40,000 bases of DNA from Anaerovorax sp. IOR16 (GCF_017168145.1 NZ_JADQTL010000009.1:1080799-1120798); one strand, 5' to 3'; counted from the first letter of the stretch, positions 981 through 39,135 are shown. Translations and numbers: made by a program. Notes: generated by a model not told the origin, from the sequence alone.

Positions 981-1316
981 TTATATCCTCCCAATAATAT
1001 TTTTAACTCCTACAAAATTACTCCGTAAAACAAAAATTGTTCCTTTAGGTAAATATTTTTCACACTTTTTTAAATGTCTAACAAATTGTTTAATATTTGT
1101 AATATTACAGTTATCACTCATAGCATCTACATTTTTAGGAATATCGCTTGACTTGCACCATTTTTTTAAATCTTCAACCCACCAATAACTTACACCCCTA
1201 CAAAATACTCCACAAAATATAGGAAGTCTATGGTATTTATGATTATAATTTTTATTAAGTTTTTCACTACTACATTTATATCTATTACCCTTTTGTGTAT
1301 TATAAGTAATTTTCAT
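981..1316 (-). CDS. hypothetical protein
   Basis: ORF track; GAAGGAGA upstream of the ATG. Confidence 0.6.
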   Translation of the reverse strand: MKITYNTQKGNRYKCSSEKLNKNYNHKYHRLPIFCGVFCRGVSYWWVEDLKKWCKSSDIPKNVDAMSDNCNITNIKQFVRHLKKCEKYLPKGTIFVLRSNFVGVKNIIGRI

Positions 1317-1344
1317 TTCATTTCTCCTTCATAAAGTTTTATAT

Positions 1345-1530
1345 CTATAATTCCTCTATAGAATCAGCTCGTGCTTCGTTACATATATTTCCTACTTTCT
1401 CTTGTTGCATCTCTATAAATTTATCAATAGCTTTTTCTTCTGCTTCAGCTTCGTTGTCTGCATACACTATTATATTTCTCTGTCTATAAGTAGAAACAAA
1501 ACCACCTATTTCAACTTTGTATTTTGACAT
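1345..1530 (-). CDS. hypothetical protein
   Basis: ORF track; GGAGG upstream of the ATG. Confidence 0.6.
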   Translation of the reverse strand: MSKYKVEIGGFVSTYRQRNIIVYADNEAEAEEKAIDKFIEMQQEKVGNICNEARADSIEEL

Positions 1531-9343: not shown

Positions 9344-9423
9344 AAAGCACACTTCCTCATAATAATTAGTCATATGGCTATGTGTAGCACTTTTCATTTC
9401 TTACTTGGTGCTTCCATAGCAAT

Positions 9424-10740
9424 TTAATATTTTGCTTTGTCAGCAGGGAAATGAGCCCCTTTGTCCTCTCTGTACTGGATGCAAGCCCTTGAGCTTGCAA
9501 CATCTGACAATGAGAGCAGAGCGGAGCGGAAACCAATGTTGTTGCTCGAGTTCGAACGAAGGTTGTTCAAGTTCAAGGCGAAAACCCCAGCAACAGAACC
9601 GTCGTTCCAGTAGCCACCACGAATCGGAAGCCTTTCTCCGTAGTTACGAACCCAGAAGCCATCTCCTCCACACGAAGCATCTACTGGAGCAATCCCTAAA
9701 GCTTTTAACAACGTCGGTACTGTTACACCGCTCTTAGCAGCTAAAGTCTCAAAATTACAATGGCTGTATCTATAGTATTCGTTAACATCTCCACCAGTGT
9801 AGTTAGGATTATCCCTTACAGTATTTATGATTGGGTCTCCTCCTACATTGTTTCCATCTTTGTCCGCAGTACCAGGAGTTGTATTGTCAATTTTAAGAGT
9901 TGAAGCTGTGCCTGGTGCTGCCAAATTACCATCCTGTAAGACAGCTTTCCACCAAGAGCTTGTATCTCCAAAGTCAGCGTTTGCCATTGCAGCATCATTG
10001 TCCTTTACAATCTGTATTTCACCATTCTTAAGTCTTAGTCCAGCAGTCCACTCCCAGACATTACCGTTCAAGTCGAATATACCTTCATTTGTTCCATCAT
10101 GAGCCCATGCTGCTGAACCTGAACCAGTTGCAACTCTACCAGTATGATGATATTTAGTGCCATCAAATTCATTGGCTCTGTTGTTCCAGTTATAGTCTAG
10201 TAACCAATCGTAAGTTTGAACTCCGACCTCATGTAGTGCACTGTGTTCACCTCCACAATAATTGTTACCCCTTGGCATGTATCCGTTTTTCTTGCACCAT
10301 AAGGCTATTGCAGTCCATTCAGCATTCGTCATAAGATGCCAGCCTGCCCCTTTGTTTTTGCAGTATTGCACCGCTTGGTCAAAGTTCACATAGACTCTAG
10401 GGTCTTTCATTGGAAGTGAGTAAGCTCTATCATTTACAACTATGTTTTGATACTTAGATATCAGGATTTCATCCTTAACAACACCATCCACGATAAAGGC
10501 TGGATGCGTTGTATTAGGAGCACCGTCAATCACATCAGATAAGTTGAATTTTGGTATCCTAACCATTACTGAAGGCATCCCAAGTTCATCAAATAAATAA
10601 CTCTCTAATTCTTGCCCGTTTACATCGTCAATTTCTACTGGTATTAATGAACAATCTTTCATTATATATTTAGTATCATTAATAATTGATTTATAATCTT
10701 TGCTTGTTTTATTCCATTGTTTACTCGTAATTTTAAACAT
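9424..10740 (-). CDS. DGR target protein with C-terminal C-type-lectin/FGE-like fold
   Basis: Contains GWHLMTNAEW, GIFDLNGNVWEWTAG and a C-terminal RGGYWNDGSVAGVFALNLNNLRSNSSNNIGFRSA. It lies directly upstream of the RT on the same strand. AAAGGAGAT SD. Visibly G+C-richer than all neighbours. Confidence 0.85.
   Translation of the reverse strand: MFKITSKQWNKTSKDYKSIINDTKYIMKDCSLIPVEIDDVNGQELESYLFDELGMPSVMVRIPKFNLSDVIDGAPNTTHPAFIVDGVVKDEILISKYQNIVVNDRAYSLPMKDPRVYVNFDQAVQYCKNKGAGWHLMTNAEWTAIALWCKKNGYMPRGNNYCGGEHSALHEVGVQTYDWLLDYNWNNRANEFDGTKYHHTGRVATGSGSAAWAHDGTNEGIFDLNGNVWEWTAGLRLKNGEIQIVKDNDAAMANADFGDTSSWWKAVLQDGNLAAPGTASTLKIDNTTPGTADKDGNNVGGDPIINTVRDNPNYTGGDVNEYYRYSHCNFETLAAKSGVTVPTLLKALGIAPVDASCGGDGFWVRNYGERLPIRGGYWNDGSVAGVFALNLNNLRSNSSNNIGFRSALLSLSDVASSRACIQYREDKGAHFPADKAKY
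9480..9499 (-). promoter_or_regulatory. hairpin about 20 nt 3' of the VR (candidate DGR target-recognition hairpin)
   Basis: On the minus strand TGCAAGC-TCAAGG-GCTTGCA forms a 7-bp perfect stem. It follows a GC-rich run (TCCGCTCCGCTCTGCTCTC) at the VR 3' end. Confidence 0.45.
9520..9621 (-). other. candidate DGR variable region (VR)
   Basis: These 34 codons encode RGGYWNDGSVAGVFALNLNNLRSNSSNNIGFRSA and are rich in AAC codons. They sit at the position where VRs lie in CLec-fold targets. Exact ends cannot be set without the TR. Confidence 0.6.
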
Positions 10741-31114: not shown

Positions 31115-32098
31115 ATGGCTGAAATAAGTCCTAAAATTAGATTTTATAATAAGGAAAAATTAGAAAAAATTAATTCAGAAACATTAAAATTATGGAATAA
31201 GTATAAAATTGACATGTCAATTCGTGAGTTAAGTCAAAGAACAGTTGATGGATATGAAAACGATTTGCAGCATTGGTGGATATATATTTATGATAAACAA
31301 GGAAATCAATGTATTACAGATTTAGACGAAGATGATATTACTGAATTTTTATATTTTTGTAAAACCCAAGGTAATAATTCAAGAAGAATGAAACGTAGAA
31401 TGTCATCTATTGCAGCATTTTATAAATTTTTACGAAGAAAGAAAATTATTAAAGAAAATCCGATGGAATTTATAGAAAGACCAAAGAAAGATACCGATAT
31501 TATTACACAGACATTTTTAACCCCCGAACAAGTTGAATTAATGAAAGAAAAATTAATAGAGCATATTAAAAATTGTACTGATGGAAGGTTTCACCATGCT
31601 TTACAACTTCAATGTTACGCCCTATTCTCTTTGTCAACAATGGCAAGGGTTACTGCTGTAAGTAATACAAGATGGGAACAAATAGATTTTGAAAATCGTG
31701 TTGTTAAAGATGTTTTGGAAAAAGAAGGATATATTGTAGATTTATTTTTCTCAAAAGAAGTGAAAGATATATTGTTAAAACTACAAAAATATCGTAAAGA
31801 AAACGATATTGATGATAATGGATATGTATTTGTAACTACATATGATAAAAAAACTGATGTTACCACTACAGGAACATTAAACCAATGGTGTAAGGTAATT
31901 GGAAATATGATTGATGTCCCTACCCTTCATTGTCATGATTGGAGACACAGTGGTGCTACTTTGCTTAAAAATAAAGGTATGGAATTAGAAGAAGTGTCAA
32001 AATTGCTGAATCATAAGAGTACAGATGTTACTACTAAGTTTTACATTAAGACTGATACTACTCAATTACAAGCAAATAAAGATAAGTTTGAGATATAA
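31115..32098 (+). CDS. int: tyrosine recombinase / phage integrase (XerC/D-like, with SAM-like N-domain)
   Basis: The N-domain ...TVDGYENDLQHWW...SSIAAFYKFLRRKKIIKENP is present. The catalytic region has ARVTAV (Arg), HDWRHSGATLL (H-x-x-R) and LNHKSTDVTTKFY (His ... Tyr). Start set at the ATG at 31115 behind AAAGGATGG, because the track start at 30971 runs through the terminator and the tRNA. Confidence 0.85.
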   Translation: MAEISPKIRFYNKEKLEKINSETLKLWNKYKIDMSIRELSQRTVDGYENDLQHWWIYIYDKQGNQCITDLDEDDITEFLYFCKTQGNNSRRMKRRMSSIAAFYKFLRRKKIIKENPMEFIERPKKDTDIITQTFLTPEQVELMKEKLIEHIKNCTDGRFHHALQLQCYALFSLSTMARVTAVSNTRWEQIDFENRVVKDVLEKEGYIVDLFFSKEVKDILLKLQKYRKENDIDDNGYVFVTTYDKKTDVTTTGTLNQWCKVIGNMIDVPTLHCHDWRHSGATLLKNKGMELEEVSKLLNHKSTDVTTKFYIKTDTTQLQANKDKFEI

Positions 32099-32660
32099 TA
32101 ATAAAATTATAATTAAATTATGCGAAATAGAGTAGCATTGAAAAACTATACATTGCATAGTAGAGAACTAACCATTAATTGCTCGAATTGATGTGTCGTG
32201 AGGTCATACGACTTTAAATAATAACGGAGACAACCTTACTCGTACAATGTGCTATCAATCGGGGCGAGAGAATTGATATTCTATAGCGGTGGGTTGGTTA
32301 TGTTAGCCAATGATAGAAATTAACAATTAACGTATATGGTCGGGATGAAGACCTAAAACTCATTCCCATTACAGAGTAAACTGCGAAAAATCATTTTTTA
32401 ATTAGATGTATTACTATTGGGTTACTGATAGTATATTGAATACGGTGAGAATCCAAAACAAAGAAGTCTTAGATAGAATATCTGAGAATGTATTAAAACA
32501 CCACTAGGTCGCCAAGCAAAAGTGGTACACAAATTAGGAGTGTTCGGTAAAACACAGATTAAACTAATGTTTAATAAAACTATCATAAGGCACACCTATC
32601 TGTTTTTCCTTTGGATGGGATAATTATAATAAATAAAATAAAACAATAATTTGATATTGA
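32099..32660 (+). ncRNA. candidate large structured RNA or structured leader (class unknown)
   Basis: About 560 nt with no ORF of 60 aa or more. It is visibly G+C-richer than its surroundings. Hairpins include ATCAAT-N12-ATTGAT (about 32254-32277), TCTTAGAT-AGAAT-ATCTGAGA (about 32467-32487), CCACT-N15-AGTGG and GTGTT-CGGTAA-AACAC. Strand is assumed from gene orientation. Confidence 0.3.
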
Positions 32661-32669
32661 AAGGATGTG

Positions 32670-33758
32670 ATGGCTATAGCCAGAAAACCAAGAATTGCAG
32701 AAGCTACAGATACATTTGACGATAGCCATACATATAAATGTTTACGTTGTGGTGCTGAACATCAAAATCCAGTAAAAAAATTTTATAGGTCTGAATGGTC
32801 TGAATTGTTTTTAAAAAATGATAGATATGTTCCTTTATGTATTAAATGTGTTAATGAAATTTTTAGTAATATATCAAATAAATACGGAACCGAAACTGCT
32901 TGTATTATTTTATGTTATATGATGGACATCCCGTTTTATCATAGTTTATATGATAGTATTGTTAAAAATAATAATATATTTTCTATAGGTGTATATAAGA
33001 GACAATTAAACAATAAGCAATATCAATTTCAATCATTTCAACAAACAATTCTTAATGAAGAGTTATATAAAACAGATGACGATATACGAGAAGAAAAAGA
33101 AGTAAAATGGACTGCTGATAAAATAAAAAATAAGAATGATGCAATTAACATAATCGGCTATGACCCTTTCGATGGTTATTCAAGTAATGACCGTCGTTTT
33201 TTATTTGGTGAACTTGTTAAATATTTTGATGATGATATTTCGGAGGATACATTTAAACTTTCTCAAATTATTCAAATTGTAAATAATAACAATCAAATTC
33301 GTCAATACGATTTATTAATATCTTCATTAAATCCAATTAGAGATGCAAATGATATAAAAATGCTTGGTATTTTAAAGAAAAATTGTGTTGATAGTAATGA
33401 TAAAATTGCAAAAGAAAATGAAATATCTGTGAAAAATCGTTCAAATAAAGACATTGGCAAGTCTACACTTACCTATCTTATGAGAGATTTGAGAGAGAAA
33501 GATTTTAAAAAAGCTGAAGCAAATTATTACGACCAATTAAAATCTGAAGGTACTTTATGGGCTATATCAATGTCAAATAAAGCTATAAAACAAAATGGAA
33601 TGTTTGACGAAAATGATAAACAAGAGATTTTTGATATACAAAGAGAAACAATTCAAAAATTACAATCTGAATTAGATGAAGTGTTGGAAAAGAATAGATT
33701 ATTATTAATAGAAAACGCAGATTTGAAATCAAATAAAGACGGTGATAAAAATGAATAA
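32670..33758 (+). CDS. putative terminase small subunit / DNA-packaging accessory protein (Zn-ribbon N-terminus)
   Basis: It sits immediately upstream of terL and overlaps it. CLRCGAEH...CIKC zinc-ribbon; C-terminal coiled-coil-like region. Function is inferred from position only. Confidence 0.4.
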   Translation: MAIARKPRIAEATDTFDDSHTYKCLRCGAEHQNPVKKFYRSEWSELFLKNDRYVPLCIKCVNEIFSNISNKYGTETACIILCYMMDIPFYHSLYDSIVKNNNIFSIGVYKRQLNNKQYQFQSFQQTILNEELYKTDDDIREEKEVKWTADKIKNKNDAINIIGYDPFDGYSSNDRRFLFGELVKYFDDDISEDTFKLSQIIQIVNNNNQIRQYDLLISSLNPIRDANDIKMLGILKKNCVDSNDKIAKENEISVKNRSNKDIGKSTLTYLMRDLREKDFKKAEANYYDQLKSEGTLWAISMSNKAIKQNGMFDENDKQEIFDIQRETIQKLQSELDEVLEKNRLLLIENADLKSNKDGDKNE

Positions 33759-35604
33759 AATTAGAAAAAAAGTTCTTATGACTGAATTTAAAAGAAGAAT
33801 TTGCGAATTAGATGCAGAATCAATAGCTTATTATAGAAGGAATCCTTGTATTGCTTCTGAAGATTTGCTTGGAATTAAGTTAATCGACGCACAACGTTAT
33901 ATATTACAATCATCTTGGAATACTCCTCATTGTGTTTGGTGTTGCTCACGTAACTTTGGAAAATCATTTATTGGTGCAATATTTATGATATTGAAAGCAA
34001 TTCTTTATGAGAATCAGGCTATTTATATTGTATCTAGTGTAGGTTCTCAATCAAAAGAAACATTTGGTAAAATTGAAGAAATTGTTTTAAATATCGGGAA
34101 AACCGCTGCATCCATTAAATCTTTAAAAGATATTGTAAGAAAAGAAACTAAAAAGTCCCCAAATAATAAAACTGGATTTAGCCATGCTCCTGAAAGTTAT
34201 ACTGTTGAATTTTACAATGGAAGTGAAATTTTTACATTAAATGGAAAGCCTGATAATAATAGAAGTAAACGTTCAACTTTAGTTTTTTTTGATGAAGCAG
34301 CATTTAGTTCAGATGAATTAATTTCTGCTTGCGAAGCATTTGCAACACAAAATACTGATTTTACAACATCTACTGATGAAAGTTATAATCCAGAGACAGA
34401 AACAAGAAAAGTTCCAACTCAATTAATATATGCTTCATCTCAAGACGAGATGGATAAAATGTTTTATAAACACTATAAGAATTATGCAAAAAGAATGTTG
34501 GCTGGAGATAGAAACTATTTTGTATGTGATATGATTTGCGATACAGCAATAAAAACATTTATGGATGGGAAGCCTTATGTTCCACTTCTTACTCAGTCAA
34601 AAGTCGACTCAGCTATGAAAGCAAATAAAGAAAAAGCTTTAAGGGAATATTATAATCAACCTACAAGAGATGGTGGAGTTTCACAAATTATTAAATGGCA
34701 TGTTATTCGCAGAAACGAATCGTTTTATTTACCGCAATTATATTGGAAACCAAATAATAAAATTGCATTAGCATTTGACCCTGCTAGAACAATGGATAAT
34801 TCTATTTTAGGAGCGATGAATTTATATCAAGATGATGAATTAGGTTGGTGTGGAGATATTGTTAATTATGTTAACTTTATAGATATTGCAAGTAAAAAGA
34901 AATATAAATTAGACTCTAATAGACAATTGGATGAAATTAGACAAATTATATTGAATTATAATGGCAACCACCCTGATTATGAATATCTTGATTCCTTAAT
35001 GATTGACCAAGGGGCAGGTGGTGGTGGAACAAGTACATATGCAGATGGATTACTAAATGATTGGAATGATAAAACAGGTCGCACCCATAGAGGTTTGATT
35101 GATGCTAATCATGATATATATGCTGGTTACTCTGATATATATCCTAATGCAATAGATAAACTTCGTTTAATAAGTCCTAGAAAATATAGAACTCAAATGG
35201 TAGAAGAGTTTATTGAATTAATGAACTTAGGAGTTATTAAACTCCCATATGAATTTAAAGGGCAAGATTTTATTAAGATAATAAAAAAAGAAGATAATAA
35301 TATTGATGAAGAAGAATTTGAAACGTATGATTTGAGTGATGATGAGATGTTAAGCTTAACTCAAATTGATTTAATGAAAAATGAAATCACATCAATTCAT
35401 CGATTTAAAAACCCCGAAGGCACATCGGTATCTTACGCTTTATCTAAAGAGAAAGAAAATAAAATGCACGATGATAGATTTTATGTGGCTATTATGTTAG
35501 CTCATAGGTTACATGAAATTAGACGTGGGCAAATAATTAATAAAACAAATAACGAAGCAGACCTCTCTTCCCTGCCCTCTTGTGTTTCATCTGTAGATTT
35601 TTAA
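33751..35604 (+). CDS. terL: terminase large subunit
   Basis: Walker-A-like CSRNFGKSF and Walker-B-like TLVFFDEAAFS, a nuclease-half-like C-terminal region, and about 620 aa. It sits at the head of the structural module. The ATG at 33751 overlaps the upstream stop. Confidence 0.8.
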   Translation: MNKIRKKVLMTEFKRRICELDAESIAYYRRNPCIASEDLLGIKLIDAQRYILQSSWNTPHCVWCCSRNFGKSFIGAIFMILKAILYENQAIYIVSSVGSQSKETFGKIEEIVLNIGKTAASIKSLKDIVRKETKKSPNNKTGFSHAPESYTVEFYNGSEIFTLNGKPDNNRSKRSTLVFFDEAAFSSDELISACEAFATQNTDFTTSTDESYNPETETRKVPTQLIYASSQDEMDKMFYKHYKNYAKRMLAGDRNYFVCDMICDTAIKTFMDGKPYVPLLTQSKVDSAMKANKEKALREYYNQPTRDGGVSQIIKWHVIRRNESFYLPQLYWKPNNKIALAFDPARTMDNSILGAMNLYQDDELGWCGDIVNYVNFIDIASKKKYKLDSNRQLDEIRQIILNYNGNHPDYEYLDSLMIDQGAGGGGTSTYADGLLNDWNDKTGRTHRGLIDANHDIYAGYSDIYPNAIDKLRLISPRKYRTQMVEEFIELMNLGVIKLPYEFKGQDFIKIIKKEDNNIDEEEFETYDLSDDEMLSLTQIDLMKNEITSIHRFKNPEGTSVSYALSKEKENKMHDDRFYVAIMLAHRLHEIRRGQIINKTNNEADLSSLPSCVSSVDF

Positions 35605-35622: not shown

Positions 35623-36114
35623 ATGACAGAGAATAAAGAAGATTTTATTATTACAGTTATAAATGACGAAGATAACGCTACTGTTATTGAAACATCATAT
35701 GAAGATGAAATATCTAAATACGAAAATGATATTTTATTATCTGCATTAAAAGATTATGATTCTACAAAACGTCAATATTCAGCATATCTTAAAGATAAAG
35801 CATCAAATGATACGTTAACTATTGAATTTATTGATGAATTAGCAAATGGAATCCATTCGGATGTATCTAAAGTGCAGACGGCAAATAATCTTATCAGAAG
35901 ATATATTATAACAGATGATATTATAGGAAAAACATATGAGAGTATCGAAAGTAATGTAAATACAAATTATAGACTTTCATATGGCGATTATAGCACACAA
36001 AGAAATAAATCAAAAAAACTTGATGATGTTAAAAATACAGTAAATATTTTTAATAAACAAATTAATTTAAAACAATTAATACGTGAAAGTATTCCTCTTA
36101 CATATGCTGAAGGT
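35623..36114 (+). CDS. putative portal protein, exon 1 (interrupted by IStron-like element)
   Basis: GGTGGTGAAT SD. The ORF ends in a stop just inside the insertion. Joining 36114 to 38008 keeps the frame (...PLTYAEG|YYGTYIVCLR...). The portal call rests on position after terL and a combined size of about 539 aa. Confidence 0.55.
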
Positions 36115-36700
36115 AACTAAACTGTTAAAAATAACTTATAAATAGTTATAAAACTTAACAATATTTATAAGTTTTAGATAGAACCGAATTAACAGAGAGC
36201 CTTGCATACCAAGTAATTGGTGTGTACTTCGGGTTAATTGCAGGTAATGGGTAAAGCCTTACACCAAAACGGATAACGAAAGTTAAAACGGGAATGGTAC
36301 GAAAGTAGAAAAAACGTAAGGATGGACTATGGTGAAATAAAAGCTGTATTTAGGTGATACAGTCCTAAGGTCTATAAATAATCCCTGTTCATGCAGGCAC
36401 TTCCCTTAACGTAAAGTCGATGGGAAAGCTTCAACGACTATCTCCTTGTGGGAGAGTAAAACCGCAAGCTAATGGCGGAAGAAAAATCCGACTCCTTATA
36501 GAAAATAAGGATGAACAAATAGTCTACGCACGTCTTGAAAAAGAGTGATTATTAGCGTGAGCGAAATAATGCTTATAAGTTGCGATTATAAGTAAATATA
36601 TAAGAGTTATATGCTCTATAAATTTTATAAGATTTTATTTGAGCAGTAGCGTGATGAACTACTGTTTTATTATATTTAATTTTAAGAGAAAGGAGGTAAA
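36115..36700 (+). ncRNA. group-I-intron-like structured RNA (5' part of the IStron)
   Basis: Exon AAGGU (36110-36114) can pair with GCCUU (36199-36203), giving a U-G wobble at the junction, extended by CUGUUAA (36122-36128)/UUAACAG (36189-36195). Also present: CCAA-GUAA-UUGG (36209-36220), UAAC-GAAA-GUUA (36274-36285), UAC-GAAA-GUA (36298-36307), and a candidate P7 pair GACUA (36325-36329)/UAGUC (36520-36524). Confidence 0.5.
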
Positions 36701-36703
36701 TTT

Positions 36704-37843
36704 ATGATAAAAGGGTTTAAAACACAAATTTATCCAAATAAAGAACAACAGGAGAAGATAATTAGGTTTTGTAACGCTAGTCGATTTGCGTATAATTGGG
36801 CTATTGCAATAGAACAAGATAATTATAAAAATGGAGGAAAATTTATATCTGGATATAATTTAACTAAAATGTTTACTCAATTTAAAAAACAAGAAGGTAA
36901 TGAATGGTTAAAGGAAATATCTGGACGTGCTTTAAAAGTTGCTATTTTAAATGCTGGACAATCTTATGAAAATTTCTTTAAAGGCAGAGCTAAGTATCCT
37001 AACTTTAAATCTAAAAAAAGAAGTAAAAAGTCATGTGCAACACATGAAGGAACTACTATAATCGAAAAGAAAAGAATTAGATGTGAAAAATTAGGTTGGA
37101 TTCCAAGTCATAAACATAATATTCCTATTGGTGAAAATATAAAATATTATAACCACAAATTATCTTTTGACGGTATAAATTTTTGGTTTAGTGTATCAGT
37201 AGAATTAGAAGATTATAAAAATACTAAACCAAAAACAGAATCTGTTGGCATTGATTTAGGAATTAAAACTTTAGCGACATGTTCTAATGGAATAATATGC
37301 AAAAAACCTAATATAAAGAAAGAACAAAAGAAATTAAAAAGATTGAAGAAAAGAGCATCAAAACGATATCAAAAAATGATTGATTATTCTAAGCAAACGA
37401 AAATCAAGTTTGTAAAATTAGAGAAATCAAAGAATTTGCTTAAACTTGAAAAACAAATTTTGAAACAATATCAAAAAATTAACAATAAGTTAACGACAAA
37501 TATACATACTTTCACAAAATCATTAATTAATTTAAATCCACAAGCTATTGTAATTGAAGACTTAGATGTTAATGGTATGAGAAAAAATAGACATTTATCT
37601 AAATCTATAAATGAAGCTAAATTTTATGAAACACGTAGGCAATTAGTATATAAATGTAATTGGTATGGAATTAATTTAGTTATTGCTGATAGATGGTATC
37701 CTAGTAGTAAAACTTGTTCAAATTGTGGTTGTATCAAAGAAAAATTAAGTTTAAGTGAACGTATATATGTTTGTGAAGATTGCGGTCTAATTATAGATAG
37801 AGATTTGAACGCAAGCATAAATTTAAGAAATTTAGCAATGTAA
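36704..37843 (+). CDS. tnpB: TnpB (IS200/IS605-family RNA-guided RuvC nuclease)
   Basis: Typical N-terminus MIKGFKTQIYPNKEQQEKIIRFCNASRFAYNWAI. RuvC-I in VGIDLGIKTLAT, RuvC-II in AIVIEDLDVNGM. Zinc finger CSNCG...CEDCG followed by DRDLNASINL (RuvC-III). Strong AAAGGAGG SD. Confidence 0.9.
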   Translation: MIKGFKTQIYPNKEQQEKIIRFCNASRFAYNWAIAIEQDNYKNGGKFISGYNLTKMFTQFKKQEGNEWLKEISGRALKVAILNAGQSYENFFKGRAKYPNFKSKKRSKKSCATHEGTTIIEKKRIRCEKLGWIPSHKHNIPIGENIKYYNHKLSFDGINFWFSVSVELEDYKNTKPKTESVGIDLGIKTLATCSNGIICKKPNIKKEQKKLKRLKKRASKRYQKMIDYSKQTKIKFVKLEKSKNLLKLEKQILKQYQKINNKLTTNIHTFTKSLINLNPQAIVIEDLDVNGMRKNRHLSKSINEAKFYETRRQLVYKCNWYGINLVIADRWYPSSKTCSNCGCIKEKLSLSERIYVCEDCGLIIDRDLNASINLRNLAM

Positions 37844-38007
37844 TTTAACTACATGTTAAATATGTACTCAGACCGTACTGAGGATTTTAAGTCTGTGGAG
37901 TTCTACATCAAACTAGAGTAGATTTATCGAAATAGAGAACAATGAAACAGAAAGTATAAAGTTAAGAAATGAAATTTTATAAAATTTATAGAGTTTTATA
38001 ACTTTTG
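37844..38007 (+). ncRNA. 3' part of the TnpB omega-RNA (reRNA) scaffold / intron 3' segment
   Basis: In TnpB elements the guide RNA scaffold spans the 3' end of tnpB to the right end. This ORF-free 164 nt contains the CTCAG-ACCGTA-CTGAG hairpin and ends at the proposed 3' splice site. The 5' limit probably lies inside tnpB and is not determined. Confidence 0.45.
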
Positions 38008-39135
38008 TATTACGGTACTTATATTGTTTGTTTAAGAAATAACGGAAATAGTTATATTGTAGACCATTATCCTATCGGTGTTGCATATATGAGTGAATAT
38101 ACATACGGTGGGAAACCAGTTGTTGAAATTAATATCAAAGAACTTGAAACAAGATTGAAAAAGACATATGAAAAAGATAAAAAGAAAAAACCAATTTTCT
38201 TTGAAAATATCGAAAAGGATATCCAAGCAAATTATCCACCAGAAGTTTATAAAGCTTATAAAAATAAAGAAACTGTTGTTAGATTGGATACAAAATATAC
38301 TGGAGTAATAAGAATTGGAAATATGGGTAGAAGGTATGGGGTATCCCCTATTCTTCGAGCGTTAAAATCAGCCCTTATGCTTGAAAATTTTGAGAAAAGT
38401 GATAATACTAATGCTAAAGCTAAAGCTAAGAAAATTATACATCAAATTATGCGTAAAGAATGTCTGGGCTCTGATTTAAACAAAAAGGGTTTCGAATATG
38501 CTATTCACGCACATAACGAATTATGCAGTGCGTGGAAAAATAAAACTGTCGTATATACTTCTATTCCGCAAGTTGAAAAAGTTGTTTATGTAGAACCTAA
38601 AGTAGATGATACTAATGCTGATAAAATTAATATTTATCGAAGTAAGATTATGACAACACTTGGTATAGGGTTTATAGACACTAATGTAGCTAATTTTTCT
38701 GTAGCGAATATATCATTAGACCAGCTAATGAAGACTATTAATTCTATATCTCAACAACTTGAAAGAATTGTTCAAGATTGGTATGAAGTATTGTTTGAAA
38801 ATGAAGGAATCGATTTAGAATACCTTCCTACTATACAAATTATAGACAGTGAAGCAATGGATATGGAAATGAAAAAAGATTTAGTTGAATTACTTTATAG
38901 TAAATTAAATTGTTCAATGAGTACGGCTCTTGATATTTTAGGATATTCTCTTGAAGACGAAAAACAAAAACGTATTTCCGAAAATGAACAAAATTTAGAT
39001 TCAGAAGTATTTTTACCTCATAATTCACAATATACAAACAGTGGTTTAAATAAAAATGTAGGTGCTCCTTCAGATAGTAAAAATTTAGACAAACAATCTG
39101 ATGATAAAAACTACAATAAAAAAGTGAGAAAATAA
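38008..39135 (+). CDS. putative portal protein, exon 2
   Basis: The frame opens only 2 codons upstream (stop at 37999-38001), and there is no SD or ATG for the track's TTG start. It continues the exon 1 frame after removal of 36115-38007. Confidence 0.55.
   Translation, partial: YYGTYIVCLRNNGNSYIVDHYPIGVAYMSEYTYGGKPVVEINIKELETRLKKTYEKDKKKKPIFFENIEKDIQANYPPEVYKAYKNKETVVRLDTKYTGVIRIGNMGRRYGVSPILRALKSALMLENFEKSDNTNAKAKAKKIIHQIMRKECLGSDLNKKGFEYAIHAHNELCSAWKNKTVVYTSIPQVEKVVYVEPKVDDTNADKINIYRSKIMTTLGIGFIDTNVANFSVANISLDQLMKTINSISQQLERIVQDWYEVLFENEGIDLEYLPTIQIIDSEAMDMEMKKDLVELLYSKLNCSMSTALDILGYSLEDEKQKRISENEQNLDSEVFLPHNSQYTNSGLNKNVGAPSDSKNLDKQSDDKNYNKKVRK

Follow-up and report, generated by a model that had tools for sequence, protein, structure and literature searches.

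A probable TnpB-only group B IStron in a prophage portal gene, with splicing and guide-RNA formation predicted to share its 3' end

How can the gene of a virion structural protein be expressed when the gene of an RNA-guided nuclease lies inside it, and could a single transcript provide both the spliced message and the guide? This question is raised by a prophage in a 3.38-Mb bacterial genome, part of which is covered by the window (the whole stretch of DNA analysed here, 40,000 nt, AT-rich with 29.5% G+C). The large terminase gene is followed there by a 165-aa ORF whose stop lies at 36120, and a 376-aa ORF without a proper start opens at 38005 and matches the phrog_2739 portal profile from position 147; tnpB is located between the two. 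The original prediction proposed that the omega-RNA of TnpB and the 3' splice site of an intron use the same sequence. In this work, we conclude with considerable confidence that the stretch 36114-38015 is a TnpA-less IStron of group B (IS607 type), which follows GAAGG within the prophage's portal gene; its splicing and guide folds, as well as its homing, are proposed by homology. The features that make up this reading are collected in Table 1.

Table 1. Features of the portal locus and of the probable IStron, in positions of the window.
Feature	Position	Strand	Basis
Large terminase gene	33742-35604		phrog_2; directly upstream of portal exon 1
Portal exon 1	35623..36113	+	ORF immediately following the large terminase gene; alignment to the first ~164 aa of full-length portal homologues
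Putative TAM and 5' exon strand of predicted P1: GAAGG, with the GG core dinucleotide at its end	36109..36113	+	Related copies: AAAGG, AAAGG, TGGGG
Whole probable IStron, group B / IS607 type, TnpB only, 1902 nt	36114..38015	+	Ends common to related copies; excision restores the portal reading
Group I intron catalytic core (predicted IA2, Twort-like)	36165..36547	+	RF00028, blastn to phage introns, RNAalifold covariation
Long AU-rich IR stem that closes the tnpB-containing loop, 5' arm	36596..36642	+	Complementary to 37967-38011
tnpB, 379 aa, IS607-type RNA-guided nuclease	36704..37843	+	Pfam; 8IAZ; phrog_506 at 3.8e-102
First ("nexus") stem-loop of the omega-RNA; loop CCGUA 37873-37877 = PK-1	37867..37882	+	4/5 stem pairs covary
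RAGATH-18 motif	37892..37953	+	Rfam RF03064, 66.2 bits, E 2.8e-12; also in all related copies
3'-terminal AU-rich stem-loop (SL5 equivalent; "3' DR" + "3' IR")	37953..38011	+	Consensus fold, 26 pairs
UACGG: PK-2, conserved terminal CGG, predicted 3' splice site (after G38015), transposon right end	38011..38015	+	Conserved in all copies, divergence right after; pseudoknot covariation
Putative guide segment TACTTATATTGTTTGTTTAA, first 20 nt of portal exon 2	38016..38035	+	First non-conserved sequence past the right end
Portal exon 2	38016..39135	+	phrog_2739 portal protein, E 5.6e-14, profile positions 147-494

The group B IStrons described so far (BcISt1, CbISt1-4, and CsISt1) are inserted behind GG, have CGG as their terminus, and undergo splicing after a G (PMC4227781). 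Among IMG/VR viral contigs, TnpB relatives at 64-84% identity led to five related IStron copies, which are 64-78% identical in TnpB and whose flanks are unrelated to each other. The element of Clostridium phage c-st (L010), the CbISt3 of the PMC4227781 survey, presents the TAM TGGG, the left end AAACTAAACTG.., the right end ..GUAUCGG, IS607 OrfA and OrfB, and a RAGATH-18 motif. Of the related copies, L011 lies in a virion structural gene's Shine-Dalgarno region, and L017 near the 3' end of a phage gene without known function; upstream of the IS genes of L012 and phage c-st, consensus-like promoter hexamers can be read by eye. The IS607 serine-recombinase TnpA (ORF A) that belongs to the description of group B is missing from the window copy, which does not exclude its membership; ORF-A-less members were accepted in the 2014 survey, where some members reside in phage genes (PMC4227781).

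The TnpB of the window shows the Pfam domains HTH_OrfB_IS605, OrfB_IS605, and Cas12f1-like TNB, and its closest solved structure is 8IAZ (ISFba1 IS607 TnpB), which aligns over the full length (E 2e-60), catalytic residues included. The RuvC triad (D184/E285/D365) and the zinc-finger cysteines (338, 341, 357, and 360) are kept, and a TAM-dependent, RNA-guided cleavage of dsDNA is predicted for the protein. Directly after tnpB, the stretch 37844-38015 constitutes its omega/reRNA scaffold and the right end of the IStron, with the layout of the IS607 TnpB and RAGATH-18 nucleases: the motif downstream of tnpB, conserved flanks, a pseudoknot, and then a variable guide. The five right ends share a fold made of the first stem-loop, the RAGATH-18 helices, the terminal AU-rich stem-loop, and a single-stranded ..UACGG tail, which is complementary to the CCGUA loop of the first stem-loop. 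This pseudoknot is maintained by compensation in L012 (CCGUU with AACGG) and in phage c-st (CGAUAC with GUAUCG). When the scaffold fold, pseudoknot included, is imposed on the five copies, 97% of the cells pair and 12 pairs have changed on both sides, whereas none of 500 shuffles is as good and structures slid by 1-3 columns pair in only 38-47%. Another stretch of the window, 32123-32168, had been proposed earlier as an omega-RNA remnant; it was set aside, having no Rfam match at E-values up to 1.

This degree of conservation bears on a reading that we regard as unlikely, according to which the element still splices, and TnpB and its omega-RNA are a stranded relic, without nuclease activity or targets and hence without real competition or homing. 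Several negative results would agree with it. No ORF of at least 50 aa that could be TnpA exists in the left 590 nt (36114-36703); the own genome, 95.6% complete, contains neither a homologue of the c-st IS607 TnpA nor a second TnpB, and the element is present in a single copy; a promoter of the sigma-70 type was looked for in the window and not seen immediately upstream of tnpB; and no perfectly matching uninterrupted allele was found in viral or metagenome collections. The loss of tnpB is also documented in the family, since L017 has lost most of it, while its ribozyme and IR stem persist together with the full scaffold. However, the TnpB ORF of the window is full length, with the triad and the zinc finger intact, the helices and the pseudoknot of the scaffold are maintained by compensatory changes among copies that differ as much as stated above in TnpB, and IStrons without TnpA typically keep TnpB intact (PMC4227781, PMC13565253). 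As for the missing promoter, it makes phage late transcription the probable source of both TnpB and its guide, and this would place the ribonucleoprotein in cells with replicating and recombining phage genomes. A hairpin with a U-run at 36641-36667 was considered as a terminator and rejected, as the terminator scan did not list it and its counterpart in L011 is, by eye, almost devoid of G-C pairs.

Returning to the TnpA-less IStron as the preferred reading, its left part contains a group I intron. The core stretch is richer in G+C (39%) than the window, and by blastn it matches the IStron of Clostridium phage c-st as well as group I introns carried by Twort-like Staphylococcus phages; from these relatives, the Twort-like phage introns and CbISt3, we infer the subtype IA2. 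With 3.1 kb as the query, Rfam at default sensitivity did not report the intron, and the match to RF00028, which extends over the full model, appeared only with the 611-nt left part alone, at 39.1 bits (E 1.8e-8), below the gathering score of 50. RNAalifold predicts 102 pairs in the intron region of the five copies, 41 of them with changes on both sides. In the predicted P1, AAGG(U) at 36110-36114 faces GCCUU at 36199-36203, and UAACUAAA then lies opposite AGA; in L012, the GGGG of the TAM faces CCCC. This arrangement is that of the P1 of group B, in which the last G of the exon pairs with C, a U-G pair is displaced by one position into the intron, and an internal loop comes next. In group B IStrons, that U belongs to the intron and not to the exon, so that splicing follows the G (PMC4227781), and we infer that splicing in the window copy would take place after G36113 and after G38015.

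The portal gene itself is consistent with this prediction, as the in-silico excision of 36114-38015 restores the ..YAEG/TYIV.. frame (the slash marks a junction, here and below) common to about 40 homologues. Exon 2 has 147 homologues in the representative library, of which the full-length ones match from the G of ..EG/T.. on; the portal homologues have a size of approximately 540 aa. Searches with megablast and tblastn against GenBank phages gave no close relative of either the portal gene or the element, and exon 2 found just two weak matches in genomes of the same family; a scan of genome contigs with TnpB peptide patterns gave no match. It is quite improbable, in our opinion, that the prophage is defective and its portal gene simply disrupted by an insertion that splices inefficiently. 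Native IStrons do splice with efficiencies that range from about 2% to 80% (10.1101/2023.11.20.567912), and the context of the 3' exon can abolish splicing altogether (PMC13521648). Against such a fate, both exons are intact and in frame, without further lesions, the ribozyme core is conserved with covariation, and the complementarity of P1 to the TAM is kept. A virion requires only 12 copies of the portal protein. This low need may make the gene tolerant of incomplete splicing, and modest splicing could suffice.

Where exactly the IStron ends determines the guide, the TAM, and the product. DNA similarity between the related copies and the window starts at around 36110-36112 and stops exactly at 38015. 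The left ends read RRGG/TAAC.. throughout, with TAAC after the junction in four of four and T36114 as the first base of the element, and the right ends all read ..TATAACTTTT(A/G)TAT(T/A)ACGG/ before changing into unrelated sequence. In the window copy (GAAGG/TAAC...TTACGG/TACT), the insertion follows a GG-ending site, the 3' terminus is CGG, and there is no target duplication. The uninterrupted portal relatives read ..LTYAEG/TYIL.. (L029, 75% identity), ..YAEG/TYV.. (L009, 76% identity), and ..YIEG/NYA.. (L007, more distant). Since the portal homologues read ..AEG/TYIV.. and the copies all end in ACGG/, the right end and the 3' splice site are assigned to G38015, and not to G38007 as in the original prediction. 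The deletion of 36115-38007 that the latter implies is also in frame, but it predicts ..AEG-YYG-TYIV.., with three residues that occur in none of the 40 full-length portal representatives aligned after an exhaustive protein search. It looks plausible because the window copy has GGTA at both junctions, a repeat that is not conserved in the other copies and that, at the level of the product, makes the G36113/U36114 boundary indistinguishable from the next 1-2 positions. The distance from RAGATH-18 to the end is 62 nt with an end at 38015 and 54 nt with an end at 38007, the 3' flank reported for ISFba1 being 60-64 nt (PMC11061315).

An element ending at G38007, with U36114 joined to U38008 and TATTACGGTACTTATA as the guide, is thus very improbable: even though its junction respects the frame and the two canonical rules of group I introns (the G of GCCUU is available for pairing with U36114, and the intron would end in a G, G38007), and alternative 3' sites within 10 nt ending in G are usable in mutant libraries of a related IStron (PMC13521648), the YYG that it adds is absent from the closest uninterrupted relatives as well, the positions 38008-38015 are conserved in all copies despite their unrelated flanks and form the covarying pseudoknot, and group B IStrons splice after G and end in CGG by experiment (PMC4227781; 10.1101/2023.11.20.567912).

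With the end at G38015, the scheme of guide, TAM, and empty site put forward originally stands as a concept, which fits the published IS607-type IStrons (10.1101/2023.11.20.567912; PMC13521648), and its specific sequences have to be replaced, by 8 nt in the guide and 1 nt in the TAM. The stretch 38008-38015 (TATTACGG), formerly the first eight bases of the guide, is scaffold conserved in all copies, including the pseudoknot and the terminal CGG, and the guide starts at 38016 (TACTTATATTG...). Its length is predicted as 16-20 nt from published systems (PMC11061315; 10.1101/2023.11.20.567912), and the omega-RNA should end about 16-20 nt past 38015, rather than past 38007. The TAM was given as GAAGGT, one base too many, as GAAGG ends at 36113 and T36114 belongs to the conserved TAAC of the element. 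The targets of group B IStrons end in GG (PMC4227781) and the TAMs of IS607 TnpBs are G-rich (PMC11061315), with AGGAG, GAGGG, and TGGG among those published; GAAGG is the putative TAM here. Within the element, the guide is preceded by the self sequence TTACGG; position -3 distinguishes it from the TAM, with A in the TAM and C in self.

The empty site would accordingly be written as ...GCTGAAGG/TACTTATATTGTTTG..., while the junction GAAGGT/TATTACGG... matches no uninterrupted allele. This correction of the register is of practical relevance: the latter junction is a non-existent target, on which experiments would probably fail and a cleavage assay would probably give a false negative. Among the uninterrupted alleles, L029 keeps the TAM and has 3 mismatches in the 20 nt of the target (GCTGAAGG/TACATATATTCTATGTTTAA), and L009 keeps it with 6 mismatches in 20 (GCAGAAGG/AACATATGTTTTATGTTTGA); IS607 TnpBs have been reported to be sensitive to mismatches (PMC11061315). 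Degenerate codon patterns for the uninterrupted site gave no match in viral and metagenome contigs. The exact 20-mer of the empty site does occur in three viral contigs, at the start of an unrelated gene, and these occurrences were set aside as chance and not as portal alleles. When TAM plus guide was searched in the own genome, the top match other than self had 3 mismatches, no better than a control with the reversed pattern.

The IR stem was also met independently as an inverted repeat of the window, enclosing tnpB. The energy of its duplex is -43 to -56 kcal/mol, compared with about -23 +/- 3 in shuffles. In a 5x5 matrix of left and right segments, the cognate pair of each copy is the most stable one, and the sense duplex is more stable than the antisense duplex in four of the five copies (-43.1 vs -24.3 in the window). 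As the cognate pairs are the best and the sense strand prevails over the antisense strand, these comparisons argue for a co-evolving RNA helix. A long AU-rich IR stem around the ORF, together with a 3' direct repeat that is placed immediately before the 3' arm and able to pair locally with the 3' IR, is a feature of group B, and in the window the terminal stem-loop and the 3' arm of the IR stem use the same bases. The last five bases of the scaffold have a triple role, as the 3' half of the pseudoknot, as bearers of the conserved terminal CGG, and as the site of the predicted intron-terminal G. The overlap of omega-RNA and 3' splice site is therefore borne out, the predicted splice site lying within the last scaffold bases as in the published group B IStrons. 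In these relatives, PK-2 and SL5 overlap the determinants of the 3' splice site, splicing cuts guide and scaffold apart, and how stable SL5 is determines what becomes of the RNA; PK-2 and SL5 make splicing and omega-RNA function exclude each other (10.1101/2023.11.20.567912; PMC13521648). A pairing of the 3' exon with bases located 5' of the IR stem was discarded as chance, since the columns involved are not homologous from copy to copy.

By homology to BcISt1, CboIStron, and ISFba1, the portal transcripts would have two exclusive fates. In the intron fold, the IR stem (36596-36642 with 37967-38011) would bring the 3' end to the core, P1 would be formed by AAGG(U) and GCCUU, and splicing after G36113 and after G38015 would restore ..GCU GAA GGU ACU.. 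and the full portal protein of ~536 aa, with the predicted exon-exon junction ...GCUGAAGG/UACUUAUAUUG... (GAAGG/UACUUAU). In the guide fold, the same 3' bases would form the local terminal stem-loop, UACGG would pair with the CCGUA of the nexus loop, and TnpB would bind to the locally folded scaffold, with 38016 to approximately 38035 as the guide. The resulting ribonucleoprotein would cut the element-free portal allele (TAM GAAGG plus TACTTATATTG...), and repair from an IStron-bearing copy would copy the element in, that is, intron homing or retention. Given that neither a TnpA nor a second copy is detectable in the genome, the only evident route of spread is homing, from one phage or prophage to a related one.

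The competition between splicing and guide-RNA maturation on one transcript matches, in this way, what is published for the relatives, and all the parts that it requires are present in the window; what does not hold is its novelty. Such a competition has already been described for the family (Tourasse 2014, Zedaveinyte 2023/24, NAR 2026) and put to experimental test in relatives, phage-borne members are known, as in C. botulinum phage c-st, and the present element belongs to a described family and adds no new principle. This locus is set apart by the portal gene as the host, by an element that is solitary and has TnpB only, by GAAGG as a variant of the TAM, and by an IR stem of very great length. 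A wider idea, which we put forward as tentative, is that TnpA-less IStrons of phages have turned into RNA-guided homing introns, where TnpB, programmed by the transcript of the intron-exon junction, would cut the intron-less portal allele of a competitor and the unusually long, co-evolving IR stem would set the ratio of portal mRNA to guide RNA. Upon mixed infection, or superinfection of the lysogen, the competitor allele would be converted to the IStron-bearing form or the competitor would be excluded. The spread of TnpA-less IStrons by intron homing has been considered in a 2026 review as an idea awaiting validation (PMC13565253), and, if true, the proposed behaviour would constitute the first example in nature of viruses engaged in OMEGA-type intron homing or interference. 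As a natural test case the locus is clean: a solitary element that lacks TnpA but keeps TnpB and scaffold intact lies in a prophage gene for an essential structural protein needed in few copies. Related copies are found in other phage structural regions, and the setting suits a test of whether RNA-guided intron homing spreads TnpB-only IStrons from phage to phage.

Regarding the known systems, the closest resemblance is to the group B IStrons (PMC4227781), with which the window copy shares the 5' IA2 intron, the GG-ending site, the CGG terminus, a U as the first base of the intron, the AU-rich IR stem, and the 3' direct repeat. It differs from them in the TAM (GAAGG vs TGGG, AGGG, or GAGG), in the length of the IR stem (approximately 45 bp vs the reported 15-34), and in its location in the prophage portal gene of another host. 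The DNA of CbISt3 is 70-76% identical to that of the window in the intron core; however, CbISt3 has a TnpA, and identity at the DNA level in TnpB is detectable only over the C-terminal ~290 nt. The CboIStron (10.1101/2023.11.20.567912) has, in turn, the same TAM and scaffold ending as CbISt3. With the CboIStron and the CseIStrons (Zedaveinyte et al., Science 2024; PMC13521648), the window element has in common the overlap at the right end of transposon end, 3' splice site, and scaffold end with PK-2, a scaffold ending in xCGG, and a weak terminal stem-loop that is AU-rich at its base, and in the CboIStron the TAM and the self sequence also differ at position -3 (TGGG vs TCGG there; A vs C here). 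Function has been shown experimentally for those elements, whereas here it is proposed by homology, and, contrary to the autonomous CboIStron with its TnpA_S, the only conceivable spread of the window element is homing. The ISFba1 IS607 TnpB (Ren et al. 2024, PMC11061315; 8IAZ) offers the same order of 5' flank, RAGATH-18, ~60-nt 3' flank, and guide, together with a G-rich TAM, but it belongs to an ordinary IS607 element without an intron and with the TAM AGGAG. Finally, in the phage introns that carry homing endonucleases (Twort, T4 td/nrdB, PhiPA3 gp210; 10.1101/2023.09.30.560319), the nuclease is a protein-only enzyme, whereas that of the window would be RNA-guided, with its guide within the intron-exon transcript; splicing would thus destroy the guide, a conflict that the protein-only homing endonucleases do not face.

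The mini-IStron of the viral contig L017, whose insertion site is close to the 3' end of a phage gene assigned to phrog_25520, has its tnpB shrunk to an ORF of 96 aa that matches TnpB residues 1-87, while the ribozyme, the IR stem, the RAGATH-18 scaffold and its ACGG end are all intact. The stem of the hairpin preceding tnpB covaries in this element and in the full copy of L011, and its GCGUGA loop motif occurs a second time in the window, at ~36556-36566. The related copy in L012 carries additional sequence between the IR arm and tnpB, at the end of which a near-consensus promoter is predicted by eye (TTGACA and TATACT, separated by 17 nt); no promoter comparable to this one was found in the window copy.

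Features of the window IStron, related viral contigs and a further non-coding RNA
Feature	Location	Strand	Remarks
RT-14 RNA (Rfam RF02921)	window 9378-9521	-	77.7 bits, above gathering score
Conserved hairpin, CAGUAG..GUGAUGAA..CUACUG	window 36641-36667		between 5' IR arm and tnpB ribosome-binding site
Mini-IStron, same family as window IStron	L017:951-1941		viral contig
Closest full IStron copy to the window's	L011:920-2833		TnpB 78% identical
Additional ~230 nt	L012:~1270-1500		between IR arm and tnpB
RAGATH-18	L014:327-389		upstream of tnpB match
RAGATH-18	L015:738-798		upstream of tnpB match

In L014 and L015, both viral contigs whose TnpB is more distant (43% identity), RAGATH-18 lies upstream rather than downstream of the tnpB match, which points to a neighbouring or tandem element.

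The exact 20-mer GAAGGTACTTATATTGTTTG, corresponding to the TAM plus 15 nt of the guide, is present in three unrelated, G+C-richer viral contigs (L019, L020 and L021), in each case where an unrelated gene begins (ATGAAGGTACTT...). The matches are due to chance.

Elsewhere in the window, an RT-14 RNA, a reverse-transcriptase-associated non-coding RNA, is encoded away from the IStron. The likeness of the ORF-free region 32050-32720 to the omega-RNA region, noted separately in the original prediction, found no support in Rfam, no family matching the region at E-values up to 1.

The full copy in L011 is inserted at AAAGG/AGAT, a site that looks to fall within a Shine-Dalgarno sequence; the ATG of the gene 3' of the insertion, coding for a virion structural protein (phrog_2729), lies 9 nt downstream of this apparent Shine-Dalgarno. 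The G-rich TAM of the window IStron's family resembles ribosome-binding sites.
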